Source: Candidatus Omnitrophota bacterium
GTDB taxonomy: Bacteria; Omnitrophota; Gorgyraeia; Zapsychrales; Fredricksoniimonadaceae
Reading direction: 5' to 3'
Assembly: GCA_903944345.1 (NCBI GenBank)
Contig: CAJARJ010000020.1
Span: forward strand, 18,110-82,109
Length of the DNA: 64,000 nucleotides
Shown here: positions 23,750-42,402 of the stretch, piece after piece
Position numbering within the stretch: the stretch's first letter is position 1
Layout of the letters: each line of letters opens with the position of its first letter
Program-made: the position numbers and the translations under genes
Notes under the pieces: generated by a model
Told to the model about the DNA's origin: nothing
Databases searched by the model: none
The model's input: only the letters and a program-made list of their open reading frames with translations

Positions 23750-24856
<1,107 letters not shown>

Positions 24857-24992: not shown

Positions 24993-26270
24993 TCAGAAAT
25001 TAATCAGCAAGCCCGTGCTTTCGCTCAAAGGCTGCTCAAAATAACTCCCGCGATTTTCTTTGTACGAGTTTTCTGCCAGCAGACGAGCCCGGACAACGTC
25101 GGCAGAGCCTGACAGACGGCCCAGCATGTCCTTGTAAACAGCAGGGAAATACTCTTCTTCCCGGGCTGCAACAAGCACGGCGCGCAAAACCTCCCGCTTG
25201 TTTTCAATAATCGATCGATAGGCTTGCGGTAACCGCGGCAACAACAAACAATGCTCCAGGTAATTAATGGCCCGGATATAGACCTGCCGGGCCTCTGCCA
25301 GAGCCAGATGCGAAGAAAGCACCAAAACACGTGCTTCGCGAACAGAATCGGGCAGCATGTCCAACTGCGCCAGGATCCTGTCAGTAACCGGCACCCCGGG
25401 CAGAGACAAACGGATCAGCTTGCCCTCCGAGACCCGCCCGTCGAGCGAAAAATCTTCTGCCGCCTTCTGCCAGAGGGCGACAAACTCCTGCCGCGCCTCC
25501 GCGACAACAGAGGCAAAGGAACGTTTAGGAAAAACTTCGCTGATATCATTGGCTGTGATCACCACTTCCCCGCTGAGCGCGGCGACCTTGTCACCCTCAT
25601 TAAGCTGTGGAAGTCCCAGCAGTCCCACCGCATCACGCACAACATGCACTGACCTACGCCCGTCTTCAAGCGTCCCGGCATCCTGAATGCAGGGCAGAAA
25701 TGAAAACGGCGCTTTGACCTTGCGACAATCGCCAAGCGCCCGCATCAATCCGTTATCCTGCCTGGCCAGCAGACATTCCCGGACTGAAAGCTTGCGCAAG
25801 CGTTCGTTCAGGTTATCAGAGGGTAAATCCAGCCTTAATAGTCCCAGCTCTTCCAGCAACAAGCTCTGCATGGACTGTGTCCGGTAATGTTTAACAATAT
25901 CTGCCAGCGCGGGACTGGAATACGACAAACGCAACAGGTCATACGCACTGACCGGAACCTTATCCAGCAGGCGTCGGGATAAAAGAGGCCGCAGCCCCTC
26001 CTCAATTTCCTGCCGGAACGCCAGCTCACGATCGTCCAGGCGTACCGGCCGCAGCAGCGGGCCAGTCGAAGCCTTGTCCAGCTCGCTCACTTTGGCTTGG
26101 TGCTGTGCGCGGTCAAGGCCCGGTGTCCGATAATAACAAAACCCCCGGTCGTCAATAACCGCCTTGCGTAAACGGGTATCCGCAGGCGCGTCCGGTGCAA
26201 AAATATCAGCGGCCGCCGGCACTCCCACCAAAAGCAGAACCAGAGGGAACCATCTTAGAACAAACAGCAT
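24993..26270 (-). CDS. hypothetical secreted Leu/Arg-rich helical protein (last gene of the T4SS-like operon; TraH-sized)
   Basis: Start placed at ATG 26270 (MLFVLRWFPLVLLLVGVPAAA, signal-peptide-like), 16 nt inside the traU 3' end. No recognisable motif. Confidence 0.4.
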   Translation of the reverse strand: MLFVLRWFPLVLLLVGVPAAADIFAPDAPADTRLRKAVIDDRGFCYYRTPGLDRAQHQAKVSELDKASTGPLLRPVRLDDRELAFRQEIEEGLRPLLSRRLLDKVPVSAYDLLRLSYSSPALADIVKHYRTQSMQSLLLEELGLLRLDLPSDNLNERLRKLSVRECLLARQDNGLMRALGDCRKVKAPFSFLPCIQDAGTLEDGRRSVHVVRDAVGLLGLPQLNEGDKVAALSGEVVITANDISEVFPKRSFASVVAEARQEFVALWQKAAEDFSLDGRVSEGKLIRLSLPGVPVTDRILAQLDMLPDSVREARVLVLSSHLALAEARQVYIRAINYLEHCLLLPRLPQAYRSIIENKREVLRAVLVAAREEEYFPAVYKDMLGRLSGSADVVRARLLAENSYKENRGSYFEQPLSESTGLLINF

Positions 26271-27157
26271 TCTTTCTGTCTCCAATAAATCCAGACATAA
26301 CTGCCGTCCGCCGAACGCCGGCCGTTCTCCCACAGATCCGCCTGCTCTCCGACGCGCAAGCAACGGCTCTTTGACGGAAAGACCATCTGCAACCGATCCC
26401 TCAATTTGTCTGGCGAGAACATGGCCGGCACAATAATCCGATGCGGAACCAGCATGTTCAACGAAGCAATATCCACCGCCCGGTAGGCTGCCACGGCCGA
26501 GCCGACGGCCTCGCTATAATGAACCAGCTGTCCGGTCCGCGGAAACAACGGCCCCCAGCTGCCCAGACATGCCACAGCCGACAAAGGATGCAGGAAGTTC
26601 TCACACACCGGCCCGGCTGCGGCCAGAAGACGCGCCAGAGGATGCCCTGCTTCCCCGCGACCAACGCGCCACTCGGCAGCGTCAATCTCACTTAAATAGG
26701 ACAATGGCCCCGCAAGATCCGGGGGCCCCTCGCACGGCGCCAGAATAAGAGCAGACACCTGATCAGATAAAGGAAAACCGTAAACATGAACATCGTTCAT
26801 TTGCAAGGCCGTGGTGTCGGAGGCGTACGCGCTCCCGCTGTCGGGAGCGGCCTGACATTCCGCCGCCGCAGTAATGGTCTTGTTCCCCAATGACTGCAAA
26901 AACTTTCCCGCCAACGGACGCAATTCGTCAATCATGACCCGGCCCGGCATCTTGACGGTCTCAACAAGCAAGACCGGTTGACGGTAACGCACTCGCACCC
27001 CCACAAAAGGAGGAGTCGACCGCCGACAAACACCGATCACACGAAAATCCACACAATCCAGATCAGCGCGTAATGCCAGCGTGGACAGACTCTCAGCGCA
27101 GACAGGTACGGACAGCACAAGCCATATCAGCACAGAAACATTTATTACCCGGAACAT
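26255..27157 (-). CDS. traU: F-type conjugative-transfer pilus-assembly protein TraU family
   Basis: 300-aa Cys-rich secreted protein. ...YLSEIDAAEWR... and the C-terminal ...WIYWRQKECCLF closely parallel F-plasmid TraU (...AYLSEIDPTW... and ...LMWRKRNCVFL). AGGAG SD 7 nt upstream. Confidence 0.7.
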   Translation of the reverse strand: MFRVINVSVLIWLVLSVPVCAESLSTLALRADLDCVDFRVIGVCRRSTPPFVGVRVRYRQPVLLVETVKMPGRVMIDELRPLAGKFLQSLGNKTITAAAECQAAPDSGSAYASDTTALQMNDVHVYGFPLSDQVSALILAPCEGPPDLAGPLSYLSEIDAAEWRVGRGEAGHPLARLLAAAGPVCENFLHPLSAVACLGSWGPLFPRTGQLVHYSEAVGSAVAAYRAVDIASLNMLVPHRIIVPAMFSPDKLRDRLQMVFPSKSRCLRVGEQADLWENGRRSADGSYVWIYWRQKECCLF

Positions 27158-27178
27158 AAGAGCTCTCCTGCCGGAACA

Positions 27179-28102
27179 TCAGCCGCAACGAATGATCCAG
27201 AACATGGCCAAAGACGGCTGCATATTATTGTGCGCCTGGCCGCCCCCAGCGTTTTCTGTCGGATGAAGATATGGCACCGCCGGAATATTGTCATAATCCA
27301 GCGACTCCGCGTTCCCTTGCGCTGACCCGCCCCACCCCTGATTCTCGCTGAAAGTGTAATCATACATATTATGCTTGTGAGCGGGCATTTCCGGGATCGT
27401 CAACACATGCATCTCTGCCCCCAGCCGGCCACCTAGTACCGATGCTGACGGATGACTAACCACATTCGCCGCACTGCCCGTCATATTGTCCATTCCAATG
27501 GGCACGCGTCCCCGAAGGTCAGGCAAGGCAAACGTACTTGTTCCGTCTCCAGCACCATAAACTGTACCGATCAACGCAAACAAAAGAGTGTACTGCTCAC
27601 GTGAAATCGTCCGGCCGTCGCAAGGCAACCAACCCTCAGGTATTGTCGTGCCGGGCCAGGGGATCATGCTGCCAATCGGAAGGGCGGCATCAGGATCCTG
27701 GGCAAAACCGATATCCGACTGCACCCGGCCGTCTTGAACAACGCTTATTGGTGTCATACGCGCAACAAAGGCGGACAGCTGCGCAGGAACTTCTGTCTCA
27801 AGCATCATCCCGGCCCCCGATGAAGATAAAACATACTGACCTCCAAAAGGGTTTTTGCCCTCCCACGCCGCAGGCATATAGCCACCCTCCCTTAAATTTT
27901 GCCAATTCTGCGGCCAGACATGCTCTTTACGCTGAAATGCCCTGACAGCCTCGGTGATCCGCCCTATCTCCGCGACCGTGATGCGGGCAGCCTCAAGCTG
28001 GACACCGCGCAGAACACCGGGCACAACAATACTGACCAGAAGCCCCGCAATCAGCAGAGAAATCGACAGCTCAATCAGAGAAAATCCCTTGTCCGACCCC
28101 AT
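27179..28102 (-). CDS. type IV (pseudo)pilin with C-terminal phage tail-collar domain
   Basis: Prepilin leader MGSDKG|FSLIELSISLLIAGLL (Gly at -1, Phe at +1, Glu at +5). C-terminal half IPEGWLPCDGRTISREQYTLLFALIGTVYGAGDGTSTFALPDLRGRVPIG...HKHN matches the phage tail-collar fibre domain family (MdpB-like). Strong SD TAGGAGGTGGT before the ATG. Confidence 0.7.
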   Translation of the reverse strand: MGSDKGFSLIELSISLLIAGLLVSIVVPGVLRGVQLEAARITVAEIGRITEAVRAFQRKEHVWPQNWQNLREGGYMPAAWEGKNPFGGQYVLSSSGAGMMLETEVPAQLSAFVARMTPISVVQDGRVQSDIGFAQDPDAALPIGSMIPWPGTTIPEGWLPCDGRTISREQYTLLFALIGTVYGAGDGTSTFALPDLRGRVPIGMDNMTGSAANVVSHPSASVLGGRLGAEMHVLTIPEMPAHKHNMYDYTFSENQGWGGSAQGNAESLDYDNIPAVPYLHPTENAGGGQAHNNMQPSLAMFWIIRCG

Positions 28103-28110
28103 ACCACCTC

Positions 28111-28551
28111 CTAGAAAGTCGCCAGCCAGGTTTTGGCCCCTGCGTCATAGGAAAGTGTTTCCGCTTTCCCCCGAAACAATCTGGAAAGACCAGCCGCAGC
28201 ATTATCCGGCACACTCGAAAGCGCAATGTCCACCCGGGTGCGATCCGCTGTATTTGCGTTCACCCGATAATCACCGCCATAACTGTTTGCCCCCGTCGGG
28301 TCAAACGTAGCGGGCAAATACCCGGAACTCTTCATGGCTTCGATACTAATACCTTCATACGTCAGACTCATCACCGACAGATAGTTTTGCGCTGCCAGAC
28401 GCAGGTTATCAACCGACTGGGCCTCTCTTTGCAGACGTGCCTGCGCAGCCATCCCCCCTCCAGCACTAATCATGCCGACGAGCATGGCAATAAGTCCCAA
28501 TGCAATCGAAAGTTCAACAAGAGAAAAACCATCATTTTTGTTTACTCGCAT
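28111..28551 (-). CDS. type IV pilin / pseudopilin (prepilin-type N-terminal cleavage/methylation domain)
   Basis: 146-aa ORF. MRVNKNDG|FSLVELSIALGLIAMLVGMI class III signal. AAGGAGGAG SD. Confidence 0.7.
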   Translation of the reverse strand: MRVNKNDGFSLVELSIALGLIAMLVGMISAGGGMAAQARLQREAQSVDNLRLAAQNYLSVMSLTYEGISIEAMKSSGYLPATFDPTGANSYGGDYRVNANTADRTRVDIALSSVPDNAAAGLSRLFRGKAETLSYDAGAKTWLATF

Positions 28552-28582
28552 CCGCTCCTCCTTTTTTATTTTAAAACACCCC

Positions 28583-29662
28583 TCATGGGTGCATCATCCC
28601 TATATTTGCCAGATTCCCATACAGCGGCCTGAAAAAGGCAAAAACCAGCAACGCCATCACCCCCGCACACAGAAGGATCAACGCCGGCTGCAAAAAATCA
28701 ACAACCCGCTTGACCCGGGACTCCAGAGAACGCCGGCATAGCTGGTAACCCCGGAAGAAATACTCGTCAAGGCATCCGGATAACTCCCCGACTCTAAGAG
28801 TCTCGCCAACCCAGGAAGGGAAATACGCATCCTGCAAAAACGCGGACGACAGCATCTGCCCGCTGACCAGTCTGGTCCGGCAAGAATTCATGTGATAACG
28901 AGTCCGGCCTCCCGACGCGACAGCTGCCTCCGCCAGAGATTCATCCAGAGTAATTCCGCTTTTAAGCATCAACGACAACAGAAAAAATCCCATGGCCAGC
29001 TCCCGATCCCGAATCAGTCGCCCCACAAAAGGACACCGGGCCTGCCAGCCCGAGAACACAAGCGGCTCGGTTCTTTGCACCAGCCAAAGTCCGCCAACGA
29101 TAAGTAAGACAATTCCCAGCCAAAACGGCCACTGCATCCTCACTGTGCAAGCCAGACGCAACATGCCCCCGGTCAAAGGCCCGGAAAAAGTGCTCTGCGG
29201 CAAAAGGCTGCCCAGCCGCGGAACAATCTCGAACGAAATATAACCGGCAACCAAAAGCAGAATGACCAGCACAAACAAAGGATATCCCATAGCTCCAGCC
29301 AGCTGATGTCCTACCTCGTCGCTGGCATGGTAATATTCCGCCAAAGCCCGGGCTGAACGGGAAATTTGTCCTGCCTTGCCGGCAGCGTTGAGTGCGCGCA
29401 AGGCACATTCTTCGAAAATACCGCACTCCCCCATGGCCTGCCCAAGAGACAAGCCCCGGTCAAGGGAACGAAGCATATGCGCACAGGCCCGCGCCAGCGT
29501 CCGGCTTCCGGAAGCCCCTTCGAGGCAGCGCAGCGCGGCACCAAGCGAGAGTCCGGCAGAAAGCATGTTGGAAAGATCTTCGAAAAAGAACGCGGCCTCA
29601 GCCGCCGACAGCTTCTGCCCGGAATAGAATATCCTTAACCAAGAACCCTGACCGCTTCGCAT
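28583..29662 (-). CDS. type II secretion / type IV pilus platform protein (GspF/PilC family)
   Basis: Two T2SS_F-like repeats with TM helices (..FFFEDLSNMLSAGLSLGAAL.. and ..LAEAAVASGG..). Start chosen at ATG 29662 with a GGAGG SD. The ORF is open to 29854 but would overlap the upstream ATPase by 220 nt. Confidence 0.7.
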   Translation of the reverse strand: MRSGQGSWLRIFYSGQKLSAAEAAFFFEDLSNMLSAGLSLGAALRCLEGASGSRTLARACAHMLRSLDRGLSLGQAMGECGIFEECALRALNAAGKAGQISRSARALAEYYHASDEVGHQLAGAMGYPLFVLVILLLVAGYISFEIVPRLGSLLPQSTFSGPLTGGMLRLACTVRMQWPFWLGIVLLIVGGLWLVQRTEPLVFSGWQARCPFVGRLIRDRELAMGFFLLSLMLKSGITLDESLAEAAVASGGRTRYHMNSCRTRLVSGQMLSSAFLQDAYFPSWVGETLRVGELSGCLDEYFFRGYQLCRRSLESRVKRVVDFLQPALILLCAGVMALLVFAFFRPLYGNLANIGMMHP

Positions 29663-31245
29663 AACGACAACACTCCTTCCCTGACCAAACGACATGCATC
29701 TGCACGCATAGAAACAAACCCCGCGCGGGCGGCCTGCCGGGGCACAAGTTCGCTCATTAACCCCTGCTCGATAAGAAACCGGTCTTCTTCCTCTATACAG
29801 AAAATCTCGGCCACCACTGTCCTCCCGCTGAAGCCACCCCGGCAAGCGGAGCACCCAGCGGGGACAAAAAATTTCCGGTCACTGTGCAAAAGATATGCCT
29901 CGGCACCCGAAGGGATGCCACGGATATCCCCTTCCTTACGGCATTCCGGGCACAATTTACGCACCAGACGCTGGGCTATCACACAATTTAAAGTTGCGGC
30001 CAGATGCGCCCAATCCACGCCAAGGTCTCGCAGACGAAGAAAAGCTCCGGTCGCACTATTGGTATGCAGAGTAGAAAAAACCCGATGTCCGGTCTCTGCC
30101 GCCCGGACAGCCTCGCGAGCGGTTTTCTCGTCGCGAATCTCTCCGACCAGTACAATATCCGGATCATGCCGCAACAAGGCTCTGGTCACATCCGGAAAAT
30201 CGTATCCCTTGGCGCTGTCAACACTGACCTGGGTGACACATGAAGCCCGTACTTCAACCGGATCTTCCACAGATACGATCTTGATCTCGCTATCTTTTAC
30301 CCGACCGATCATGGCATGCAGTCCAGTGGTCTTACCGCAACCGGTCGGACCGGTGATTAAAACCAGTCCATGCGGACGCCGCAAGACGCGCTCCAGCACC
30401 TTCTGGTGTTCCGGCGAATATCCAAGCGGTTCCAGGGACATGGCTTCCCGCCCGCGTTCCAAAAGACGCAAAACCAGCGCAGAACCATTTAAAGACGGCA
30501 AATGGGAAACACGCACATCGACGACCCGTCCCCTGGCCTCAAATTCGAAACGGGCATCATGGAAACGCAAAAAGTCCCCCGCGCTGATCCCGGCACGCCG
30601 AAAAACCCGATTGACAAAAAATGGATGCTCTCCCAGCGGCCAGGAACGGTGAAAATGCAAAACACCGTCGATACGCAACCGGCTCTCGAAAGAAGACGAC
30701 GAAGGCTCGATATGAATATCTGTTGCTCCGGCAACTACAGCCTCGACCAGAATCCGGGCAACAGGATCATCGTCACCGGAATCCGCCCCTTCCGGTTCAG
30801 GACTGACACCACCGCCTGAAGAAGGCCTCAACAACTGCAAGGCCCGGTCAAGAGCACGCGGGGCGGCAACCATAAAAAAGATCTGCGAACCAAAAAGAGC
30901 CCTTAACTCATCGGTCAGTCCGGTCTGCAGGGTATCAGCCAGCACAAAAAATCGGCGTACGGCGCTCCGGGCCGGAAAAATCTTGCGCTTCCTGAAAAAG
31001 TCTTCCCCCAAAGCAGACAAAGCCTCCTGATCCACGCTCCAGTCTCCGTCATAATACGGCCACCCCGACTGCTCTGCTACAGCCCGCGCCACATCTTCTT
31101 CCCGACTCAAATGCTGTTCGACCAGTATCCGTCCCAGACGCCGGCCGCCGCCCTGCGCTTTTTGCACGGCCAGACACATGCTCAAATCTCCTGGACGCAA
31201 CTTATTGCGGCGTATAAGTATAGATCCAAGCCTTTCAGCACTCAT
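29635..31245 (-). CDS. GspE/PilB-family secretion ATPase with MshEN-like N-terminal domain
   Basis: 536-aa ORF. Walker A GPTGCGKTT, Asp/His boxes, tetracysteine CPEC...CSAC. N-terminal ~140 aa resembles the T2SSE_N domain. ATGA overlap with the upstream gene. Confidence 0.85.
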   Translation of the reverse strand: MSAERLGSILIRRNKLRPGDLSMCLAVQKAQGGGRRLGRILVEQHLSREEDVARAVAEQSGWPYYDGDWSVDQEALSALGEDFFRKRKIFPARSAVRRFFVLADTLQTGLTDELRALFGSQIFFMVAAPRALDRALQLLRPSSGGGVSPEPEGADSGDDDPVARILVEAVVAGATDIHIEPSSSSFESRLRIDGVLHFHRSWPLGEHPFFVNRVFRRAGISAGDFLRFHDARFEFEARGRVVDVRVSHLPSLNGSALVLRLLERGREAMSLEPLGYSPEHQKVLERVLRRPHGLVLITGPTGCGKTTGLHAMIGRVKDSEIKIVSVEDPVEVRASCVTQVSVDSAKGYDFPDVTRALLRHDPDIVLVGEIRDEKTAREAVRAAETGHRVFSTLHTNSATGAFLRLRDLGVDWAHLAATLNCVIAQRLVRKLCPECRKEGDIRGIPSGAEAYLLHSDRKFFVPAGCSACRGGFSGRTVVAEIFCIEEEDRFLIEQGLMSELVPRQAARAGFVSMRADACRLVREGVLSLCEAVRVLG

Positions 31246-31697
31246 AACTCCACCCTCAGGACAATAGTTTCCCCCTGCGCACCTGTCAGAATTGCACCAT
31301 TTTCATCAAGCGAACTGACTTCAAAACCGCCAACACGCTCTTTTTCCCTTGCCCAAACTTGCTGGGCATCAAACTGAAAACAGCCCCGCCAAATCCCCGC
31401 GATAGAAACAACCGAACGCAAGGATAGCGTCAGCGACTGCGCCCGGGAAACCCCGTCCTTCGCTATATCACTGACCTGCAATGGGATATCCGTCCCTATT
31501 TTTTTTAACTCGTGCTCTACTCTGGCTTTTTCCAGATCAAGCTGCAACAGACGCAAGGATTGCTCTTTATCCTGCACACTGGAAGAATATGCTCTTAAGC
31601 GCGACAAAGATTCCTTCATATCCTCTTCTCCTGCTCTGACCGGACCTGACTGCAGCAAAAATGCTGCCACAATTACGGCTATTCCTGTTTTGATCAT
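31242..31697 (-). CDS. hypothetical periplasmic protein with signal peptide (part of pilus/secretion module)
   Basis: 151-aa ORF. MIKTGIAVIVAAFLLQSGPVRA signal peptide. ATGA-coupled to both neighbours. No motif recognised. Confidence 0.35.
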   Translation of the reverse strand: MIKTGIAVIVAAFLLQSGPVRAGEEDMKESLSRLRAYSSSVQDKEQSLRLLQLDLEKARVEHELKKIGTDIPLQVSDIAKDGVSRAQSLTLSLRSVVSIAGIWRGCFQFDAQQVWAREKERVGGFEVSSLDENGAILTGAQGETIVLRVEL

Positions 31698-32188
31698 CCT
31701 TTCACCTGCTCCCCTTTCACAACAATGACCAGCGTTAATACATCTTTTGTTTGTTTAAACTCTTCGAGCTCGAACAATCCTGAACGCATCCCCCCCGAGA
31801 TCACCGCCAACACCCGGCCCAGCATGGCCCGGTCACGGACAGACCCCAGCGATACCTGCAGGCGCGAAGAGTCCAACCCGTCGGCAGCCTCTGGCGAATC
31901 TGTGGAGGTCTGCCCCAAAGAGATTGTTTGCAGAAACACCGAAACTCCTTCCGCCCGGGTCAGATCCTGCAAAAATAGCGTCAGTCGTTCATGCGCCCCT
32001 GAAAGATCATCCGGTCGGCTGTGCGGTAAACTTTGCAAATTCTTTAAACGGCCCCCATCTTGCTGTAACCGGACACGAATCTCCTGCAAGGAAGTCTCCA
32101 CTGCGCGGACAGACTGGTAAACCCCAAGACCATTGTATAAACAGGACACAACCAATCCGCCGGCAAACAGCACAAGAAACAAGCGCAT
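31694..32188 (-). CDS. GspM/PilO-like bitopic inner-membrane protein (assignment by topology only)
   Basis: 164-aa ORF. N-terminal TM (LFLVLFAGGLVVSCLY) followed by a coiled-coil-like periplasmic region. Position is between the GspL-like gene and the ATPase. Confidence 0.35.
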   Translation of the reverse strand: MRLFLVLFAGGLVVSCLYNGLGVYQSVRAVETSLQEIRVRLQQDGGRLKNLQSLPHSRPDDLSGAHERLTLFLQDLTRAEGVSVFLQTISLGQTSTDSPEAADGLDSSRLQVSLGSVRDRAMLGRVLAVISGGMRSGLFELEEFKQTKDVLTLVIVVKGEQVKG

Positions 32189-34792: not shown

Positions 34793-35220
34793 TCGAGCTC
34801 TCCTTGCGTAATTTTCTGCCCCGATCCCGGCATCGGGGTTATGTCTGCGACAATAAACGCCCCGGAATGCGTCGGCGATTGCACCACTGGTACTGACAAA
34901 GGGAAAGCTCCGCTTTTCTTCCATTCCCCCGGGGTGATAATGACCGGCTCGGCATGCCGGGGATAAAAAACACCATCGGCAATATGCGCCGGAATGATCA
35001 CATCCTGAACCAGAGGAGCGCTCCAGCTGCCGTCAAGATACGGGAAATCATTACCGTTTAACCCTTCAACCACGTCTCCTATCTGTGCCGACACACCGGC
35101 TCGATACCCCTGCAAATACGTACCGCGTTCCCTGCGGCTGAAGTTCTTCTGCCCCACGCAACCGGCAGAGGCCAGCAGAACAACCACCAATCCCACCCAA
35201 CATCCCCTAACGTAACCCAT
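34789..35220 (-). CDS. lipoprotein (candidate secretin pilotin or TraW/TrbC-position accessory protein)
   Basis: Start at ATG 35220 (MGYVRGCWVGLVVVLLASAGC, lipobox LASAGC). 143 aa. The ORF is open further upstream but would overlap traC. Confidence 0.45.
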   Translation of the reverse strand: MGYVRGCWVGLVVVLLASAGCVGQKNFSRRERGTYLQGYRAGVSAQIGDVVEGLNGNDFPYLDGSWSAPLVQDVIIPAHIADGVFYPRHAEPVIITPGEWKKSGAFPLSVPVVQSPTHSGAFIVADITPMPGSGQKITQGELE

Positions 35221-37723
35221 GTGGCATCTTTCCGGCGCACACCATAAGCGCCCTGGTGAGGTTCCCATCCTGTTGACGACGAATTTCATCCAGAAATTCG
35301 TTCTCCCTGGCATCGCTGGTTGCCGCCCAATACAAAAAAGGATCAGGAGCCAGACGAATGACCCCGCCGCCTGTACCGGCAAGCAGCAAAGCTTCTGAAT
35401 AGCGCCCCCGCACCGTAACCAGAGAACGCAAAAGTTCCCCGGTCTGCGGACTAAAGGCCAGCTCCCGGCACAACCGTTCAATAATCCCGCTTTCCTGACG
35501 TAAAAATATCTTGTGCGCGCTATTCGCCAGGATGGCCAATCCTGCCGGCTGCTGCAACAAGTCAGCGGTTTCCTGGGTCACCGCCACAGCCGCACAGCGA
35601 TATTTCCGAAACGTTTTGAAAGCCGCCGAAATGAAATCCGCTGTCGATGACGTTTTTAACAACTGCCAGGCCTCATCAATAATCAGAAACTTGTTTTTAC
35701 CGCGCAATTCCTCGGCCGAAACAAAGCCGGTTATCAAAAACATGATATTAAGCAAGGCCACCAGTTGCAGATCCGGGTAACGGGAGATTTGTGCCAGTTC
35801 AAAGACCGTAAAACGTCCTCCGGGTGCAAATTGATTCTGCCCGTCAAAGAAAGCCCCATACTGTCCCCTGCGGGTATAGGGCATAAGTCGCAGGGCCAGG
35901 CGAAACGCCATATCTGCTCCGCTGACCCCGGCGAAACAAACCGAAGGATCTTCCAGAACGGATACCACATCGCTTAGAACCAGCTCCCGACTACTGTTTT
36001 GATCATGCCGGGCATACGCCTCCAGCACAGCCAGATGCAGAACCCCTTTCTCTTCCCGCGAAAGGCGGTCACGTTCGTCCCCTCCGCTGGCCATTAATGC
36101 CAGCATATCTACCAGAAAAGCCAGCCCCTCGGACTGAAGCGTCCTGGCAAAAGGATTTATCAACACCGGGGAAGACATATCGAGTGAAACATAGCTGCCA
36201 CCCAGCACCTCGCAGGTCTTCCGGTAAGAGTGCCCCTTGTCGAGCACAAAGAAATGCGCTCCGGTCCGGTAGTTCTGATGAATAAAATCATTGGTAAAAA
36301 ATGATTTCCCTGCTCCTGAAGCGCCAATAATCACCGCATGCGGATTGGTGTCGGAATCAAACAGATCGAAGAACACCGGCTCCCCCCTGCGGTTAAGATA
36401 AACCGCCGCCGGCGTGCCAGTTCCCTGGAAGGCCCCATATAAAGGAAGCATATCCGCAAGATTGTCCGATAACATTCGCCTTTTACGTCGGATAAAAGGT
36501 TCGCGGCGATGATCATAATTCAATGGCAGGCAAGTCAGAAACAATGACGACCCGATAGCATCTTCCCGCACAGCCTGCATTCCACTGCGGCCCAGAAGAT
36601 GAATAATATGATCGGCCTGTCGCAACGACTCCTGCTCGTCAACACTGCCGCAGACAAAATGAATCCTGGCCTCAAGAACCGACTGTCCTCCCTGAAAAAG
36701 CCGGCTAATGACCGCACTAAGCTCTTCTTTCTTGCCTACGGCCTCCTCGCTGACATCTCCCAGCGAGGAAGACCGACGGATGAAAGCAAAAGCTTTCTGT
36801 GCCTTGAGCTTGGCGAGCGCCCGGCTCTGATCAGGCACAATAAAGTTGAAGACCATAGCCATATCGCCCAGCTCATCCCAGAAGCTTCCTCTGTGCCCGG
36901 CCAGCAACATCCCGGCGAAAGTCTGTGCGGGAAGCTCTTTAATGGTGACCATCCGCAGGGTCGTGCCGTCAAGTTTCAGCCCTTCGGAAGATATTTTCAC
37001 CGGACTATACAAAAGCTGATCCCGAATAAAACCCTGATCCCGAACGGGAGGCGGAACATGCTGCGAACGGCGGGGATTGAGCATTTTATACAAAAGAGCA
37101 GTTATGTCCTTTCCATCCAGGCAGACACAGGCAAGCCCCAGTGAACGCAGACCATTCTCGATCTGGCGAACCTGCCGCAAAAATTTCTCTTTATGTTCCT
37201 GCCATTGAAGAGAAATGACGCGTGACACCTGACGAGTATCACAAAAGAAAGCCTCTGCCCTGACCCCGCCAGGCACATTCCGCCAGGAAGGAAAGACGCG
37301 CACCGAGAAAATCAGCCTGATCCGCCTGACTTTCACTCGGTCCATCGTTTGTCCGTTTCGCGCCAGTGCGACCATGGAGGTCAAACGGCTGTCAAGCGCT
37401 GCGGCCACCACTTCCGAATTCTGCGCGCAACCAAACAAGCGATAACGCTCCAGCAAAGGCTCAATATCATCACTCCCCCATAGAATCACCTGCGCGTGTA
37501 CATCCGACGGAAGAGTTCCGATAAAAGCGGCCAATCCCAAAGAAAATTTTTCCCGCTCCTCGTCACAGGCCAGCTCCACATCACGGCTGACGATTTGCCA
37601 GACCCGACCCAGGCTGCCATCAACATTCAGTAATACGCCCTCAACCTCTTCTGCATAGGGCAAGTAATCAGCCAAAGATGGGCCATCGGCAAAAAGCTTG
37701 TTTATATCCTGGTCTTTCAACAT
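35207..37723 (-). CDS. traC: F-type T4SS ATPase TraC (VirB4 family)
   Basis: 838-aa ORF. Walker A VIIGASGAGKSFFTND, Walker B FLIIDEAWQLL. Size and position (after TraV-like lipoprotein, before TraU) match F TraC. Confidence 0.8.
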   Translation of the reverse strand: MLKDQDINKLFADGPSLADYLPYAEEVEGVLLNVDGSLGRVWQIVSRDVELACDEEREKFSLGLAAFIGTLPSDVHAQVILWGSDDIEPLLERYRLFGCAQNSEVVAAALDSRLTSMVALARNGQTMDRVKVRRIRLIFSVRVFPSWRNVPGGVRAEAFFCDTRQVSRVISLQWQEHKEKFLRQVRQIENGLRSLGLACVCLDGKDITALLYKMLNPRRSQHVPPPVRDQGFIRDQLLYSPVKISSEGLKLDGTTLRMVTIKELPAQTFAGMLLAGHRGSFWDELGDMAMVFNFIVPDQSRALAKLKAQKAFAFIRRSSSLGDVSEEAVGKKEELSAVISRLFQGGQSVLEARIHFVCGSVDEQESLRQADHIIHLLGRSGMQAVREDAIGSSLFLTCLPLNYDHRREPFIRRKRRMLSDNLADMLPLYGAFQGTGTPAAVYLNRRGEPVFFDLFDSDTNPHAVIIGASGAGKSFFTNDFIHQNYRTGAHFFVLDKGHSYRKTCEVLGGSYVSLDMSSPVLINPFARTLQSEGLAFLVDMLALMASGGDERDRLSREEKGVLHLAVLEAYARHDQNSSRELVLSDVVSVLEDPSVCFAGVSGADMAFRLALRLMPYTRRGQYGAFFDGQNQFAPGGRFTVFELAQISRYPDLQLVALLNIMFLITGFVSAEELRGKNKFLIIDEAWQLLKTSSTADFISAAFKTFRKYRCAAVAVTQETADLLQQPAGLAILANSAHKIFLRQESGIIERLCRELAFSPQTGELLRSLVTVRGRYSEALLLAGTGGGVIRLAPDPFLYWAATSDARENEFLDEIRRQQDGNLTRALMVCAGKMPHGLR

Positions 37724-37725
37724 CT

Positions 37726-38133
37726 CTATGGCTCCTTGGCCGTATCCGGAACTTGCGGAATAATGACGGACATCTCCTGATCCATTCCCTGTTGTCGATC
37801 AATAAACCATTCGGCCGGGCGCAACATCACAAATGCCCAGTGCCCGCCAACCATTACCTCCCGCTCTCCTCCGGAAACATGCGCGGGCACCCAGACTTTG
37901 ATAACCTTGGGAGGAAGAACAACGGGGACATACGGCTTCACATGCCCTGTATCGACTCCCCAAACCACCGTTTGTGACTCTTTCTCTGCCCCCGAAGACC
38001 GGGCAGCAGCACGATACGTTCCTCCCAAGGTCACAGCGTCTTTCCTGACGACACTCACCGGACCTCGTGCAGACAAAGAGCAGCCGCTAGTCAACAGAAC
38101 GATAAAAATCAACCGAATCCCGAGCCATCCCAT
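37726..38133 (-). CDS. TraV-like outer-membrane lipoprotein
   Basis: 135-aa ORF. MGWLGIRLIFIVLLTSGCS lipobox. Position between TraB and TraC as in the F tra operon. No sequence motif beyond the lipobox. Confidence 0.45.
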   Translation of the reverse strand: MGWLGIRLIFIVLLTSGCSLSARGPVSVVRKDAVTLGGTYRAAARSSGAEKESQTVVWGVDTGHVKPYVPVVLPPKVIKVWVPAHVSGGEREVMVGGHWAFVMLRPAEWFIDRQQGMDQEMSVIIPQVPDTAKEP

Positions 38134-39241
38134 GGATACGAAATCCTTTCTGTACGATCACATACACACGTACTCCCGGTTGAACCATCACTGCCGGAAC
38201 AATCATGTCCAGTTGCTGCTGGTAGTACCGCGACAACTGTGCGGTGCTCTGGGCCATCCCCGAAAAAAGCGCATGTTTGGCCGCATTGCCGGTCAATGTC
38301 CGTGACTCTTTCCCGTCTTGCGTAACGGCAGAGACTTCCCCGTCGGCGACAGCCTGCGAAGCTCCGCCCATAAACCCACTCATAAACGATGCCGCCAGAC
38401 GCCCTGCGGTATTGCGCACAACCACACCTTTAAGCCCCAGCTGCCCCGAACGATCCGTCAAATACCCGAAAACTCCCGACTGTTCAAAACTTGCTCCTGT
38501 CGGAAAAACAGCCGCCAGTTTTTCCGCTTCAATCAAAGCCCGCTCGCTGTTAAGATCGCCCGTCGCCTTGCCCAGAACAAAAGCTCCTTCAAGTGCAATC
38601 GCCGAAGCATTCGGACCGGTAAAGGCTTCATCAAGCCTGATCAGGACGGGCAAAGAATTGTTCCCGTCCGCCGGAGCGTACACTCCGGTCAACAGTGTCC
38701 CCGACACAAAGCTGCCCGCCGGCAGATACACATCCATGGACTCCTGATCGGGTTCCTGCACGGCTACTATGTCAAGCTGCTGGCGTGATTCTGCCCCATT
38801 CTTGTCTGCTGGTTCGCTCCCTTCCCTACGTAACCGTTTGGCAACCGCCTGCAGGCTCAGCACAGCAGTTTTTGTTTTCTTTATCGATTCACGCATCTCC
38901 TCGAACCTGGTGTTAAGTTTTGTAACCTTGCGGGACATTTCGTCATTCTTGCGTGCGACACTGTCATATTGTTTTTCCAGGCGTTCGACATAAGCCTTGC
39001 GATCCACCTCTTCTCCCAGAAACATTCCTCTGCCCGTATCTTTAAGTTGCCCTGTCGAAGAAACAGCCTGTACGACACCATGAGACTCCTGCCCTTTGCC
39101 TCTCTCCTGTTTTGACGAAAAGACAAACATCAGGACAAAAAAAAGAGCCGCTCCCGCCGCAATAATCAGCAGACCGCTCTTCTCACTTCCGGACCCAACC
39201 CTTTCAAACAAACCGCGCAAGCGGGCTAACAAATCTTTCAT
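38087..39241 (-). CDS. traB: F-type T4SS core protein TraB (VirB10 family)
   Basis: 384-aa ORF. N-terminal TM (LLIIAAGAALFFVLMFVF), coiled-coil region, C-terminal beta-rich domain ending ...IVPAVMVQPGVRVYVIVQKGFRI typical of VirB10/TrbI. Confidence 0.65.
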   Translation of the reverse strand: MKDLLARLRGLFERVGSGSEKSGLLIIAAGAALFFVLMFVFSSKQERGKGQESHGVVQAVSSTGQLKDTGRGMFLGEEVDRKAYVERLEKQYDSVARKNDEMSRKVTKLNTRFEEMRESIKKTKTAVLSLQAVAKRLRREGSEPADKNGAESRQQLDIVAVQEPDQESMDVYLPAGSFVSGTLLTGVYAPADGNNSLPVLIRLDEAFTGPNASAIALEGAFVLGKATGDLNSERALIEAEKLAAVFPTGASFEQSGVFGYLTDRSGQLGLKGVVVRNTAGRLAASFMSGFMGGASQAVADGEVSAVTQDGKESRTLTGNAAKHALFSGMAQSTAQLSRYYQQQLDMIVPAVMVQPGVRVYVIVQKGFRIHGMARDSVDFYRSVD

Positions 39242-39957
39242 CGCCTTAACACCAGATACAGGGTTGTAGAATCACTCTTACGTCCGCGTGCCTGCAAGAT
39301 GTCTCGCTCAACCGTGCCAAGCAGCAGTCCCGGCAAACTCAACCTTTGCAGAGGAATCACCAATGCCCGACCAAGCAGATTCTCAGCCCGCACCACCCAT
39401 CCTTTAAGTTGGGCTGTCGTATAACTCCTGATCACAGTCAGACGCATGGTCTTATCCTGCCAGAGCAGCTCCGAATCGCTTGACTCCGTCGCGCCAGAAG
39501 GCTTTTGCCCTAAAACCATGGCCTTGAGCATGCCCAAAGCATGATCTTGCCTGAAGGAAACAGCGGCCGTATCTCTGGAGATATAAATACGTTCCCCCGA
39601 AAAAACCTGTTGCTCAAGAGAAAGCTCCGAGGAGGAAAACCTGATCCTGAAAGAACGACCTCCACGATCAATAATCACCAATTCAGAATTATCACAACGC
39701 CGTGGCGTAACAAAAACCCGGCCGGGCGCATGTTCTACCTCGAGCGCTTCGGAACTTCCTGAACGAACCAGGTGCGACACTCCGCCCTCGACAACTATCT
39801 CGGTCATGTGCCCCGGAGTGCACGCAATCAGGCTGCTTCCCTCTTGCTCAATACGTAGCGGCACCTGCGCCTCGGCCAAAGTACAGACAAAACATAATCC
39901 AAGAACAAAACCCAAGACCCTAAAGCGCATCCTCATCTGCCTCCTTTGACCAGACAT
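39238..39957 (-). CDS. TraK-like secreted protein (VirB9 / secretin-N-like), by size, signal peptide and position
   Basis: 239-aa ORF with signal peptide (RFRVLGFVLGLCFVCTLAEA). ATGA overlap with traB. The start may be 21-27 nt downstream. Confidence 0.5.
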   Translation of the reverse strand: MSGQRRQMRMRFRVLGFVLGLCFVCTLAEAQVPLRIEQEGSSLIACTPGHMTEIVVEGGVSHLVRSGSSEALEVEHAPGRVFVTPRRCDNSELVIIDRGGRSFRIRFSSSELSLEQQVFSGERIYISRDTAAVSFRQDHALGMLKAMVLGQKPSGATESSDSELLWQDKTMRLTVIRSYTTAQLKGWVVRAENLLGRALVIPLQRLSLPGLLLGTVERDILQARGRKSDSTTLYLVLRR

Positions 39958-40507
39958 CCTCTACAACAAGACCATAAATATTCTCTCCAGCCGCCGGGAC
40001 TCGCCGCACAACAACAACATAACGCACATCTTTCATTGCAATTTCTTCCTTGCCCATATAAACCCCGCGCTTGCCGTCGATTTCTACCCGGAATGAGCGC
40101 CCTTCGGAAGCAACCCGTGCGTCATCTGTAAGCGTAAATATCGATGAAAGCCGGTCAGAAAGAATCTTTCCGCGTTCCTCCTGCGAACGGGCGCGGACTT
40201 TGGAAAGCAGCTGTGGTCCCATAAACCGGAAAGCCCGCGAATAAACTCCGTCAATCGTCTCTGGAGTATAATTCATCCAGTCCATTAACCAGGCCGAAGC
40301 GAAAGAAAGAACCGAACTTTCTGGTATCCGGTCGGGATAAGCCAGGCCCGCTTGTGCTGCCCCCGGAATATAATAGATCGGACGGGGCCGAAACGCTGTC
40401 ACCGCCAGCAATACAGCGAATATCACGCTTAAGCTTCCCAAAAGATAAAGAACATAATGCAGTTTTACATTCTCGAATTCCGCTCCGGCATAACGTTCAA
40501 AAAACAT
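39920..40507 (-). CDS. TraE-like bitopic protein (VirB8-like) of F-type T4SS
   Basis: Start at ATG 40507 with AAGGAAGG SD (MFFERYAGAEFENVKLHYVLYLLGSLSVIFAVLLAV). N-terminal TM plus periplasmic domain. Size 195 aa versus F TraE 188 aa. Confidence 0.55.
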   Translation of the reverse strand: MFFERYAGAEFENVKLHYVLYLLGSLSVIFAVLLAVTAFRPRPIYYIPGAAQAGLAYPDRIPESSVLSFASAWLMDWMNYTPETIDGVYSRAFRFMGPQLLSKVRARSQEERGKILSDRLSSIFTLTDDARVASEGRSFRVEIDGKRGVYMGKEEIAMKDVRYVVVVRRVPAAGENIYGLVVEDVWSKEADEDAL

Positions 40508-40793
40508 CCTGGCCTTCCTTGCTATAAATGCTGTAAAAACGCTCGGGCCCCGGCGGCAGCAATCCTCTGAAGCCAACTCCCTGCCGGTACAGCCAATGAA
40601 TCAGATATCCTTCCGGTTTCCCGCGCTTGAACGCGGCCAGACATGGCCAGATGAAAAACAACGCGATCAACGGAACTGCCGGAGAAAACACAATTGCCGG
40701 TACCCCGCACAATAAAAGAATCACAGCGACATCTTCACCCTCAAGGCCCAGAATAAGAAGAGGCCGGTCAATTGTTCTTGGACACGGTTTCAT
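40497..40793 (-). CDS. TraL-like small membrane protein (VirB3-like)
   Basis: 98-aa ORF. ...RTIDRPLLILGLEGEDVAVILLLCGVPAIVF... resembles the TraL/VirB3 N-terminal motif (P..i.GL...E...). Position right after the pilin gene as in F. Confidence 0.55.
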   Translation of the reverse strand: MKPCPRTIDRPLLILGLEGEDVAVILLLCGVPAIVFSPAVPLIALFFIWPCLAAFKRGKPEGYLIHWLYRQGVGFRGLLPPGPERFYSIYSKEGQDVF

Positions 40794-40794
40794 T

Positions 40795-41082
40795 TTATCC
40801 TCCGAATATCCCCAGAAAATTGGGCAGAAATACCAGCGCCAGCAAGGCTAAAACACAACCCACCGCGGCCCCGTACTCCTGATGAATAATTTTCCAGACC
40901 CCAATAAGTAAAAATACCAGCGCCAGAACCTTGGAAGCCGGTCCGGTCATAACCTTGACCATAAAATCCGCCAGACCGTTAAATTCCGTCACCGCCCGTT
41001 CCTGTGATCCCGACTGGGCAAAAGCAACCTGGCTCCACAAACTTAAGATCATCCCCGCCAAAACAGGCAACACCTTCTTCAT
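40795..41082 (-). CDS. conjugative-type propilin (TraA/VirB2-like)
   Basis: 95-aa ORF. Signal peptide MKKVLPVLAGMILSLWSQVAFA, then two hydrophobic helices separated by a short charged loop (KIIHQEYG), which is VirB2/TraA pilin topology. First recognisable tra gene. Confidence 0.6.
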   Translation of the reverse strand: MKKVLPVLAGMILSLWSQVAFAQSGSQERAVTEFNGLADFMVKVMTGPASKVLALVFLLIGVWKIIHQEYGAAVGCVLALLALVFLPNFLGIFGG

Positions 41083-42332
41083 ACGGCTCCTTTAACTGTC
41101 GGTTGAAAAATCATCTTTGCTCTCGTGAAAAATAAAAGCGCGCTCACCAGGACACACCCAAGAATAACGACAATCCCGACAGCCACTCCCACAGCCACTC
41201 CCAGAGATTCACGAAAGCCCTGCAGATCACTCCGCAGCAAAATAACCCGGCTGCAACTATCCAGAACCGTCAGACAAAACGGGCAAAGTTTGAGTACTAA
41301 CAACCCGCGAAAATACCCCAACAGAATATCCAGATTGCCTTTGAGCATAACAGCCAAAAGAAACACAGGAAAAAAGACATACCAACCGGCAAGCATTCCT
41401 CCCAGAACATAGGGCCAGCCACTCAAGACCATACGAGCCGCCGCAAGAAATTTGTCGAAAAGCTCATATGCCGGAATAACCCCGTCCTGACAAAACTTGT
41501 CCTGACAGGTAAAAACACCATATTCCCCCGGTCTGCGCTGCGTTTCCAGAATCAGAAAATCCCTGACCGAAAGCTCTACAACCGGACTTTGCAGACCAAA
41601 CAGCCTGTGAGCCTTCTCTAATAAGTGATTCTTGCCATCAAGATACTTATATAAAGACTCCTGCAATTCCCCCCAGCGACGCCCATCCTGCGCGGAATAT
41701 CGTGCAACCACCCTGGAATCTCCCGGCCATAATCCGGACGGCATAAGGCTGTTATTTTCCGACACAAGTCTTTTCAGAACAGGAAGATATGTTTCCGAAT
41801 AGAATACTTTCACCTGCTCCTTAAGACCGCCATCAGCAATGCCCTGTGAAAAAAGACGCGCCACCAGAACCGAAAGATTGATTGGCAGAAACGGACTCTT
41901 CAGAAAACCCTCTCCGGCAACCTCTTGAACTTCCATAATATTGATGAGATTATTGGAGAACCCATTCAATAGCTGCACTGTCGTCAAGAAAACCGGATTA
42001 ATCGTCAGCCTGCCCAACCCATGTTTTTCCAACAAGCCCGTTGTTGAAACCTCCCTGAAACCTCGTTCTTCCATAACCGACGGATATCCCGCAAGCTCAG
42101 TCGAGGGCAAAACAAATAACATCCATACACTAAAAAAAATCAAACAAAACATCATAAAAGGACGAATACTCCCCGCGCGGACAGATCGCCACAATGCCAG
42201 AATAAACCCCAGACCAAAAAGACTTTTGCCAAACGCACTTTGCAGAAAAAGAAATTCAATAAGAGCGTGTGAGCGATCCAGGCCTATTAATTCAAAAGCA
42301 TTCTCAACGGGCGTTATGGCTGACAACATCAT
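41079..42332 (-). CDS. polytopic inner-membrane protein, first gene of the operon (possible VirB6/TraG-N-like channel component)
   Basis: Start at tandem ATG ATG (42332/42329). The track ORF begins at a TTG four codons upstream. At least 8 predicted TM segments. ATGA overlap with the pilin gene. Confidence 0.4.
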   Translation of the reverse strand: MMLSAITPVENAFELIGLDRSHALIEFLFLQSAFGKSLFGLGFILALWRSVRAGSIRPFMMFCLIFFSVWMLFVLPSTELAGYPSVMEERGFREVSTTGLLEKHGLGRLTINPVFLTTVQLLNGFSNNLINIMEVQEVAGEGFLKSPFLPINLSVLVARLFSQGIADGGLKEQVKVFYSETYLPVLKRLVSENNSLMPSGLWPGDSRVVARYSAQDGRRWGELQESLYKYLDGKNHLLEKAHRLFGLQSPVVELSVRDFLILETQRRPGEYGVFTCQDKFCQDGVIPAYELFDKFLAAARMVLSGWPYVLGGMLAGWYVFFPVFLLAVMLKGNLDILLGYFRGLLVLKLCPFCLTVLDSCSRVILLRSDLQGFRESLGVAVGVAVGIVVILGCVLVSALLFFTRAKMIFQPTVKGAV

Positions 42333-42373
42333 TAGATTGTCCAATGGTCAATTTAGTTGACAATTACTCAACA

Positions 42374-42402
42374 AATATAGCATAAATTGACATCATGTCA
42401 AT
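42374..42402 (-). promoter_or_regulatory. sigma70-like promoter (TTGACA-N16-TATATT) for the T4SS-like operon, -35 overlapped by the perfect palindrome ATTGACATCATGTCAAT
   Basis: Read on the minus strand: TTGACA = complement of 42396-42401, TATATT = complement of 42374-42379. The palindrome attgacat c atgtcaat spans 42386-42402. Located in the 105-bp gap between rfbB and the first operon gene. Confidence 0.5.

Follow-up and report, generated by a model that had tools for sequence, protein, structure and literature searches.

The stretch analysed here, a 64,000-nucleotide segment of contig CAJARJ010000020.1 (positions 18,110 to 82,109) from a Candidatus Omnitrophota bacterium and called the window below, contains a run of 19 consecutive genes on the minus strand (24993-42332) in which genes of an F-type type IV secretion system (T4SS) are interleaved with those of a secretin-based type IV pilus module. 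Reading from the promoter end, the order is TraG_N-like protein, TraA/VirB2 pilin, TraL, TraE, TraK/VirB9, TraB/VirB10, TraV, TraC/VirB4, a lipoprotein (lp), a secretin, three envelope proteins (p11, p12 and p13), a GspE/PilB ATPase, a GspF platform protein, a prepilin, a prepilin joined to a tail-collar domain, TraU and a divergent TraH-like protein. A first-pass annotation, made from the sequence without database searches, had described an F-plasmid-like gene order with a complete secretin/ATPase/platform/prepilin module between TraC and TraU. All of its open reading frames (ORFs) were found, and both parts of the description were upheld, the gene order by Pfam/NCBIfam and family-profile assignments and the module by domain assignments. 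As it had also stated, the run encodes two pilin types (TraA and the prepilins) and two motor ATPases (TraC and GspE).

We predict that the 19 genes, served by one strong promoter-like site, are a single, tightly packed operon. Overlaps of 4 to 47 nt occur at eleven of the 18 junctions (six are 4-nt overlaps), and the widest intergenic gap is 31 nt; together with the promoter-like site, these values bear out the single coupled operon proposed in the first-pass annotation. The site (42401->42374), which has the form TTGACA-16-TATATT with an extended -10 TG, lies just 5' of the first gene, is the best sigma-70-like match in a scan of 24000-43000 and is kept in a sister species (locus L086). A perfect palindrome, ATTGACAT-N-ATGTCAAT, overlaps its -35 hexamer; both arms are kept in L086 and the centre differs. 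Additional TTGAC/GTCAA motifs downstream of the palindrome (42340-42410) are also kept in the sister species. The position of the palindrome suggests an operator-like element. An Rfam scan of the window returned a single match, one tRNA.

Several T4SS proteins were recognized directly. TraL scored 28.7 bits against its Pfam model, above the cut-off, and family hidden Markov models (HMMs) of TraE, TraB and TraU matched the corresponding F-plasmid proteins at 6e-13, 5e-33 and 6e-17, respectively. TraC has the domains TraC_F_IV (PF11130, 8e-25) and P-loop_TraG (5e-41), and its Walker A and B motifs are invariant across the family alignment; its TIGR02746 score of 392 bits is under the equivalog cut-off of 567. 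The window TraA and TraV proteins are themselves weak matches (4e-4 for TraA), and their families are recognized throughout: all nine TraA family members match Pfam TrbC (best 1e-12) and all ten TraV family members match Pfam TraV (best 3e-8). Other assignments were made through relatives. The 417-aa product of the first gene has no direct Pfam match; its orthologues match Pfam TraG_N in locus L033 (4e-14), in Candidatus Velamenicoccus archaeovorus (precomputed annotation) and in four of nine family members, and its family HMM matches F TraG at 1e-13. This TraG_N-class protein is the only TraG counterpart that we found, in place of a full-length TraG with a C-terminal mating-pair-stabilisation domain. 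The protein at the TraK position likewise has no direct Pfam match; its family profile matches the PDB entries TrwF (VirB9, 2.7e-10) and TraO (1e-4), and distant family members match CagX, TraK_N and TraK_C.

The 425-aa product of the last gene showed no direct family match, and hhalign to F TraH was also without a match. It is a full-length BLASTP homologue (7e-27) of an L033 protein that reaches the Pfam TraH gathering score (8e-6), and its earlier label of secreted protein can accordingly be refined to divergent TraH-like, by transitivity through L033 only. A single-sequence AlphaFold model of this protein was too poor for use (predicted local distance difference test (pLDDT) 36.8). Profile searches thus confirmed TraA, TraL, TraE, TraB, TraV, TraC and TraU, along with the secretin and the T2SSE and T2SSF proteins, and TraK through its family profile. 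These assignments point to a reduced T4SS composed of TraG_N, TraA, TraL, TraE, a TraK/TraB/TraV core, TraC, TraU and a TraH-like protein.

The pilus module contains a secretin whose best models, MshL (4e-54; 184 bits versus a cut-off of 250) and the type IVB PilN model TIGR02520 (1e-44), both remain below their cut-offs, and whose closest plasmid homologues are PilN proteins. It has an ordinary signal peptide, and the lipoprotein is a separate gene. The first-pass annotation was correct about the secretin. The idea that a secretin takes the place of the TraK/TraV/TraB core was rejected, because the operon has all three core proteins, each of them under constraint, and TraB has a full-length TrbI domain (profile positions 1-186 of 188). 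The assembly ATPase has an MshEN-like N-terminus: the cyclic di-GMP (c-di-GMP) motif domain NF053729 scored 37.9 bits against a cut-off of 38, and two tandem RLGxxL(I/V)...Q motifs (31080-31245) resemble the c-di-GMP-binding MshEN domain. An alternative gene call that places the start 22 codons later would drop the first RLGxxL motif. The two prepilins have leaders of 8 and 6 residues. The first, the candidate major pilin, aligned with PilS in hhalign (95% probability). The second, with its collar domain, is a tip-adhesin candidate, and large pilins homologous to it directly precede TraU in at least 11 related loci. In the window only 21 nt separate the large pilin gene from the start of TraU, too few to accommodate shufflon segments.

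The three proteins between the secretin and the ATPase were more difficult to place. Comparisons of p11, p12 and p13 with Pfam, NCBIfam, PDB profiles and local HMMs, and by hhalign with Yersinia Pil proteins, gave nothing significant. A full-library phmmer search found only 21 relatives of p11 among 1.84 billion representative proteins, and p11 always adjoins the secretin across related loci. Its single-sequence AF2 model is of low confidence (pLDDT 40.5) and yields secondary-structure order only; p11 is GspL- or PilM-N-like by topology, with homology unproven. The GspL-like and GspM-like labels of the first-pass annotation were thus left unconfirmed as homologies, with topology alone fitting. 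p13 gave weak similarities to PilP (4.6e-4 in a 10-sequence database) and GspC (0.54), and may be PilP/GspC-like.

Table 1. Genes and regulatory features of the interleaved operon, in order of transcription.
Feature	Position	Strand	Evidence or remark
Promoter-like site TTGACA-16-TATATT with extended -10 TG	42374..42401	-	sigma-70-like, 11/12 match
Perfect palindrome ATTGACAT-N-ATGTCAAT	42386..42402	.	overlaps -35 hexamer
TraG_N/VirB6-like polytopic membrane protein, 417 aa	41079..42332	-	via orthologues
TraA/VirB2-type pilin, 95 aa	40795..41082	-	Pfam TrbC/VirB2 4e-4; NF041281 TraA 4e-4
TraL (VirB3-like)	40497..40793	-	Pfam TraL 1.6e-6; TIGR02762 1.8e-7; both above cut-off
TraE (VirB8-class)	39920..40507	-	Pfam TraE 1.8e-7, 31.2 bits, above cut-off
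TraK/VirB9-like periplasmic core protein	39238..39930	-	family profile
TraB/VirB10	38087..39241	-	Pfam TrbI 6e-23; PRK13729 TraB 1e-17
TraV lipoprotein (VirB7-class)	37726..38133	-	lipobox LLTSGC; Pfam TraV 2.8e-3
TraC/VirB4 ATPase, F-type	35207..37723	-	TIGR02746 5e-117
Second TraV-like lipoprotein (lp), 143 aa, T4SS/pilus junction	34789..35220	-	lipobox LLASAGC
Secretin	33335..34792	-	Pfam Secretin 1.6e-28
p11, bitopic: cytoplasmic domain, one transmembrane helix, coiled coil, periplasmic alpha/beta domain	32211..33338	-	
p12, small bitopic protein, PilO- or GspM-like topology	31694..32188	-	position conserved
p13, periplasmic protein with signal peptide	31242..31697	-	weak hints only
GspE/PilB-family assembly ATPase	29635..31245	-	T2SSE 3e-97; GspE 2e-99; PilB 2e-98
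GspF/PilC platform	28583..29662	-	T2SSF 1.4e-32, two repeats
Prepilin, candidate major pilin	28111..28551	-	N_methyl 4.7e-5; 8-residue leader G|FSLVE
Prepilin with phage tail-collar/gp10_C-like domain	27179..28102	-	N_methyl; Collar 9e-26; Gp10_C 1.7e-4
TraU	26255..27157	-	Pfam TraU 3e-28; TIGR03756 2.5e-17
TraH-like secreted protein, 425 aa	24993..26270	-	via L033 orthologue

The two gene sets meet at the lipoprotein gene. The first-pass annotation had called it a lipoprotein, which its lipobox bears out; it is more exactly a second TraV-like protein. BLASTP matched lp to the window TraV at 2e-5, and a comparison of the lp and TraV families by hhalign gave 97.1% probability (E 5e-11, 98 columns), with 96% in an independent local run. 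The shared core reads P.VQ.V.IPAHI..G....H.E.VII.PGEW in lp and P.V.KVWIPAH......GHW.YV...P.WFI in TraV, and in F TraV the C-terminal end aligns with it. In the solved core of pED208, TraV's C-terminal domain is a beta-hairpin between TraK C-terminal domains in the outer ring (PMC8770708). On this similarity we consider lp to be a TraV paralogue. Six related loci (L010-L014 and L047) have no separate lp gene; in these, residues 30-105 of a 519-553-aa secretin ORF, preceded by a lipobox, correspond to the lp core (in L012, hhalign probability 98.6%, E 6e-16). The fusion provides a Rosetta-stone-type argument that lp and the secretin act together. The lp gene is also kept in L033, which has no pilus module, and since lp is both TraV-like and retained there, its role may be to link the secretin with the T4SS core. 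These observations suggest that the secretin docks on the T4SS outer-membrane core.

The interleaved layout is not confined to this genome. A TraC alignment scanned against one genome per GTDB species yielded 78 loci, which were annotated by iterative local HMMs. Gene neighbourhoods syntenic with the operon were recovered in ~40 metagenome-assembled genome (MAG) loci, mostly labelled Omnitrophota, so that the arrangement is widespread in this phylum. They include the epibiotic predator V. archaeovorus, whose closed chromosome has the same interleaved order (CP019384.1 602710-625244; L005/L023). TraC and TraU homologues were numerous at 42-55% identity, and the named ones are labelled Candidatus Omnitrophota or Omnitrophica. 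Some loci bear other labels, such as 'uncultured Planctomycetales' (many loci), 'Elulimicrobium' (L008, Patescibacteria group) or 'Micrarchaeia', all of which are unverified MAG labels. One of these, L047 (JAVZXS010000008.1), from a MAG labelled Candidatus Micrarchaeia archaeon, has a complete A-E-K-B-V-C-(lp-secretin fusion)-p11 series; because a secretin and a VirB7/9/10 core imply an outer membrane, it is probably a mis-binned bacterial contig.

In 37 loci the sequence extends for 3 kb or more 3' of TraC, and in 34 of these the secretin directly follows TraC/lp. The exceptions are L033 (no pilus module), L015 (secretin undetected) and L038 (JAJXTI010000009.1), in which ~6.6 kb is inserted between TraC and lp/secretin (2930-9531), the only interrupted junction of this kind. 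Identity to the window falls in step for the two gene sets, from 56 to 45, 37 and 32% for TraC and from 54 to 37, 30 and 27% for the secretin. T4SS and pilus genes that diverge in step argue for long co-inheritance rather than repeated insertion. The order in L033 is TraG_N-?-T4CP-A-L-E-K-B-V-C-lp-X204-TraU-thioredoxin-like-TraF-TraH, where T4CP denotes a coupling protein. This is essentially the order of the F plasmid (traC-trbI-traW-traU-trbC, ...traF...traH), and the pilus module therefore sits at the trbI/traW position, in support of the first-pass placement of the module where TraW/TrbC should be. Direct searches of the related loci with the F-plasmid TraH, TraW, TraN, TraF, TrbC, TrbI and TraK returned no match, because F is too distant.

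Loci outside the window clade vary around this plan. In the Velamenicoccus-like clade a TraD/VirD4-type coupling protein lies between TraG_N and TraA, and it is in-operon in 10 loci. In V. archaeovorus an Imm_superinfect-like ORF and an NYN-domain gene additionally separate TraL from TraE, and a GNAT toxin/TacA antitoxin (TacT/TacA) pair on the opposite strand separates the large pilin from TraU; the operon seems able to accept cargo at a few of its junctions. Three Nitrospirota-labelled loci (TraC ~28% identity) have T4CP, TraX, E-K-B-V-C, a lytic transglycosylase and a TraF-like protein, and continue with lp, secretin, prepilin, platform and ATPase. The chimera thus also occurs, in a looser form, beyond Omnitrophota. 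No secretin was detected in the more distant TraC loci, which come from Planctomycetota, Bdellovibrionota and Oligoflexia and from a second Omnitrophota paralogue. The divergent TraC paralogue (24-29% identity) of L077-L081, labelled Omnitrophota, and of L065-L075, from Bdellovibrionota/Oligoflexia, stands in the secretin-free order TraC...TraG_N-TraE-TraK-TraV-T4CP. Some Omnitrophota therefore also bear a more conventional T4SS, and predatory Bdellovibrionota bear a related one.

We considered whether the contig could be an assembly chimera of two unrelated contigs. We found no support for this explanation and regard it as refuted, with a negligible remaining chance. The exact TraU protein occurs in identical context on at least four independent metagenome assemblies, one of them a 335-kb scaffold. 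The sister species L086 has the same 19 genes in order at ~90% protein identity with the same rml flank, and the order recurs in the ~40 diverged loci and on the closed chromosome; the mis-assembly that the first-pass annotation had allowed for is thereby excluded. GC content and skew are smooth across the putative chimera points. Comparison with L086 gave dN/dS ratios (non-synonymous to synonymous substitution) of 0.04-0.25 for all 19 genes at a coding dS of ~0.5. Purifying selection acts on every one of the 19 genes.

The genomic setting is that of a chromosome. On one side the operon is flanked by rmlBDCA, glycosyltransferases, hisG, a SurA-like protein and two-component genes, and on the other by the genes for GAPDH, a 1980-aa PKD/peptidase protein, MTHFR and radical-SAM enzymes; these flanking genes are housekeeping genes and are identical in the two species. 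The 1980-aa secreted protein (17598-23540, minus strand), one gene (GAPDH) downstream of the operon and kept in that position in other assemblies, has a papain-like (Peptidase_C1) region followed by ~10 tandem ~190-aa PKD/Flg_new_2-type repeats. It might serve the same lifestyle as a surface adhesin or protease. We found no coupling protein and no relaxase in the 64-kb window (relaxases having been sought only through Pfam matches and by BLAST with TraI), and the window annotations contain no integrase, prepilin peptidase (A24 peptidase) or PilT-type ATPase. Relaxases and integrases were also absent within ~20 kb in the window and within 10 kb in both L086 and V. archaeovorus. An in-locus T4CP is missing from the whole window clade and is present in-operon in other clades. 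TraW, TrbC, TraN and TraF had no Pfam/NCBIfam match in the operon, and tblastn with the F and L033 proteins was empty across the window, where TrbB, TraX and a TraG C-domain were likewise not found. The window without relaxase, T4CP or integrase, the housekeeping flanks and the lineage-wide layout fit the first-pass proposal that this is not a plain conjugation system.

Together, these data lead us to favour, with slightly better than even confidence, the reading that the operon encodes a domesticated, chromosomal and vertically inherited cell-contact apparatus, namely a reduced F-type T4SS with a built-in secretin-based type IV pilus module, and not a mobile conjugation system. The nearest contender is that two independent machines share one transcript, a T4SS with its conjugative-type pilus and a separate adhesive type IV pilus that make no contact, the interleaving being a frozen insertion accident. 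Such independence would accommodate the lineages in which the ATPase/platform/pilin block is missing from the locus, as well as L033 with no pilus module at all, and in R64 a T4SS and a type IV pilus cooperate without forming one complex. We nevertheless think it rather unlikely, given that the TraC-lp-secretin-p11 adjacency is kept in 34 of 37 loci, even without the motor block, that the TraV-like lp is fused to the secretin in six loci and that the two gene sets diverge in step. Ordinary conjugation has also to be weighed: the operon might be the mating-pair formation (MPF) apparatus of an integrative conjugative element or integrated plasmid, with an accessory type IV pilus that stabilises mating pairs in liquid, as in R64 (IncI1) and PAPI-1/SPI-7, and the chromosomal copies would then be integrated or decaying. 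The in-operon TraD/VirD4-type coupling proteins of the 10 Velamenicoccus-like loci and L033, the T4CP and F-specific TraX of the Nitrospirota locus L062, a pilus gene order that parallels pilL-N-O-P-Q-R-S-V, the PilN homologues of the secretin, and the toxin-antitoxin and NYN insertions in V. archaeovorus are all in keeping with this idea. It is made unlikely by the relaxase- and integrase-free surroundings of all three loci searched, by the lack of an in-locus T4CP in the window clade and the identical housekeeping flanks in two species, by purifying selection on every gene at a locus conserved across a phylum with reduced genomes, and by the absence of TraN and the TraG C-domain, which stabilise mating pairs.

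Nucleic-acid uptake is a third explanation, in which the secretin and pilus would import DNA as in competence and the T4CP-less core would act in a ComB-like manner, feeding a biosynthesis-limited nanobacterium. Type IV pilus-dependent DNA uptake is a common idea for ultra-small bacteria. The window clade resembles ComB in having no coupling protein, and the secretin is related to HofQ, PilQ and MshL. In the most divergent Omnitrophota-type loci, L044 (15354-16103) and L048 (15436-16110), a ComF-like phosphoribosyltransferase lies directly 3' of the TraC-lp-secretin-p11 core, a neighbour that is a possible hint at nucleic-acid handling. However, this ComF match is weak (1.5e-6, near the cut-off) and confined to one small clade; TraA pilin, TraU and TraH are pilus-assembly factors missing from ComB-type systems; no ComEC or ComEA was found in the window annotations; and the T4CP of many lineages points to export. 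We judge uptake to be quite improbable.

Several observations weigh against our reading of the operon as one cell-contact apparatus. The L010 and L012 operons end after p13 and are followed by sensor kinases and housekeeping genes, and L006, L007, L008, L016 and L050 pass from p12 directly to the TraH-like gene. Because the ATPase/platform/pilin/TraU block is away from the core in several lineages, the two halves are genetically separable. The window lineage shows no coupling protein that would recruit substrates; the operon also has no retraction ATPase (PilT-type) and no prepilin peptidase. Finally, physical coupling of the secretin to the T4SS core draws only on paralogy and gene fusion: lp has no direct match to Pfam TraV or to any PDB chain, and the link therefore comes from the TraV family of this lineage itself. 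L044 and L048 have a core that stops after p11. The variant loci therefore define an invariant unit of the T4SS genes, lp, secretin and p11 (with or without p12), and the ATPase/platform/pilin/TraU block can be elsewhere or absent in some lineages.

If the operon does encode a cell-contact apparatus, it might work as follows. The GspE-like ATPase, possibly gated by c-di-GMP, and the platform protein would assemble a pilus that exits through the secretin, and the tail-collar pilin would be a receptor-binding tip that catches the surface of a host or prey cell. The TraV-like lp would tether the secretin to the TraK/TraB core through a beta-hairpin, as F TraV does between TraK C-terminal domains, and the pilus port and the T4SS channel would thereby lie side by side. 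The T4SS would then be a conduit for macromolecule exchange with the bound cell, powered by TraC and, where one is encoded, by the coupling protein. Such a device would resemble the pairing of type IVb pilus and T4SS in R64/PAPI-1, but hard-wired in one machine and serving the cell rather than a mobile element.

The apparatus would fit the lifestyle of Omnitrophota, which have been described as ultra-small predators or parasites (PMC10066038). In V. archaeovorus, predator RNA appears in dead prey cells, and a transfer of molecules into prey has been suspected by an unexplained route (PMC13153191). Because its layout is conserved across a predatory or parasitic phylum, the operon is a strong candidate for a device that seizes other cells and exchanges molecules with them. 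We tentatively raise the further possibility, at somewhat below an even chance, of a single composite envelope machine, in which the secretin is docked on the F-type core through the TraV-derived lipoprotein and the adhesin-tipped pilus and channel form one contact-dependent organelle. Omnitrophota would use it to hold on to bacterial or archaeal hosts and to carry macromolecules, nucleic acids possibly among them, across the interface, and it would be the predator-to-prey route in V. archaeovorus.

Omnitrophota are abundant, uncultivated and ultra-small, and the published surveys report no more for cell contact than T4a and Tad pili, giant proteins and translocases. An operon that is kept through much of the phylum and in the one enrichment-grown predator is a concrete candidate for the cell-contact interface. 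It offers a natural instance of a T4SS and a type IV filament system, machines that are classically separate, sharing one operon; the TraV-secretin gene fusion predicts a physical link between the outer-membrane complexes of the T4SS and the pilus; and the pilus-less L033 shows the ancestral F-like layout. It would also indicate that an F-type T4SS can persist as a chromosomal cellular organelle without a relaxase.

The joining of an F-type T4SS to a type IV filament system is a new arrangement of known kinds, and there is a real chance that it forms a structurally integrated machine. We found no description of the interleaved arrangement in full-text literature searches, which did not cover Kizina et al. 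2022 (V. archaeovorus genome). The operon is not mentioned in West-Roberts et al. 2023 (10.1101/2023.11.21.568195), Seymour et al. 2023 (PMC10066038) or two 2026 Omnitrophota preprints. Seymour et al. list T4a and Tad pili for Omnitrophota and no T4SS. West-Roberts et al. describe an Omnitrophota T2SS/Tad-like gspD/E/F locus by giant genes, with a proposed role in prey contact; rcpC and a rotamase belong to that locus, which lies beside giant ORFs and contains no Tra genes, and the present operon is a separate system. The first-pass annotation, which knew of no described system with this organisation, is borne out for the literature searched. This does not extend to the pairing in function of a T4SS and a type IV pilus, for which the resemblance of the module order to PilL-N-O-P-Q-R-S-V provides an R64-type precedent.

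Compared with the MPF_F systems of F and pED208, the operon shares the order traA-L-E-K-B-V-C...U...H, a TraC_F_IV-type TraC with TraL-E-K-B-V 5' of it, a TraK/TraV/TraB core, TraG_N, TraU and a TraH-like protein (the last via L033 only). It differs in being without TraW, TrbC, TraN, TraF (present in L033), TrbB, TrbI, TraX, TraQ and the TraG C-domain, and in having nine pilus-module genes at the trbI-traW position and a second TraV-like lipoprotein. F and pED208 are plasmid-borne, whereas the operon is chromosomal and conserved across a lineage, and the window has neither TraD nor TraI; the relaxase and T4CP that accompany MPF genes in self-transmissible systems were not found in its 64 kb. 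The T4SSs of Helicobacter (ComB), Bordetella (Ptl) and Brucella (VirB) are similarly VirB4-powered cores with no in-locus coupling protein, as in the window clade, but are P-type and have no F-specific proteins, secretin or pilus module.

The pilus module is closest in plan to the R64 pilI-V and PAPI-1/SPI-7 pilL-V systems, which likewise combine a T4SS with a secretin-based pilus bearing a large adhesin minor pilin. The gene order is also alike: lipoprotein, secretin, two to three small envelope proteins, ATPase, platform, pilin and big pilin. In those type IVb systems the module lies beside an I- or G-type T4SS, whereas here it is inside an F-type T4SS operon. Further differences are the short leaders of 6-8 residues in place of a long-leader prepilin, an adhesin domain that is a phage tail collar rather than PilV, and the absence from the operon of the PilU peptidase, PilT transglycosylase, PilM and shufflon; p11, p12, p13 and lp showed no significant similarity to PilO, PilP, PilL or PilM among Yersinia Pil proteins and NCBIfam models. 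Relative to a type II secretion system (T2SS), the D-, E- and F-class proteins fall below equivalog cut-offs, there are only two prepilins, and no operon protein matched GspC, GspL, GspM, GspI, GspJ or GspK in Pfam or NCBIfam. Relative to type IVa pili, the operon has one GspE/PilB-class ATPase only and gave no PilM/N/O/P matches. VirB7 lipoproteins with a secretin-type N0 domain occur in Xanthomonas (compare Legionella DotD). They are a precedent, in the outer parts of a T4SS outer-membrane complex, for a VirB7-class motif joined to domains derived from a secretin; here, by comparison, the TraV-like motif is attached to, or lies beside, a full-length, pore-forming secretin with its own ATPase, platform and pilins.

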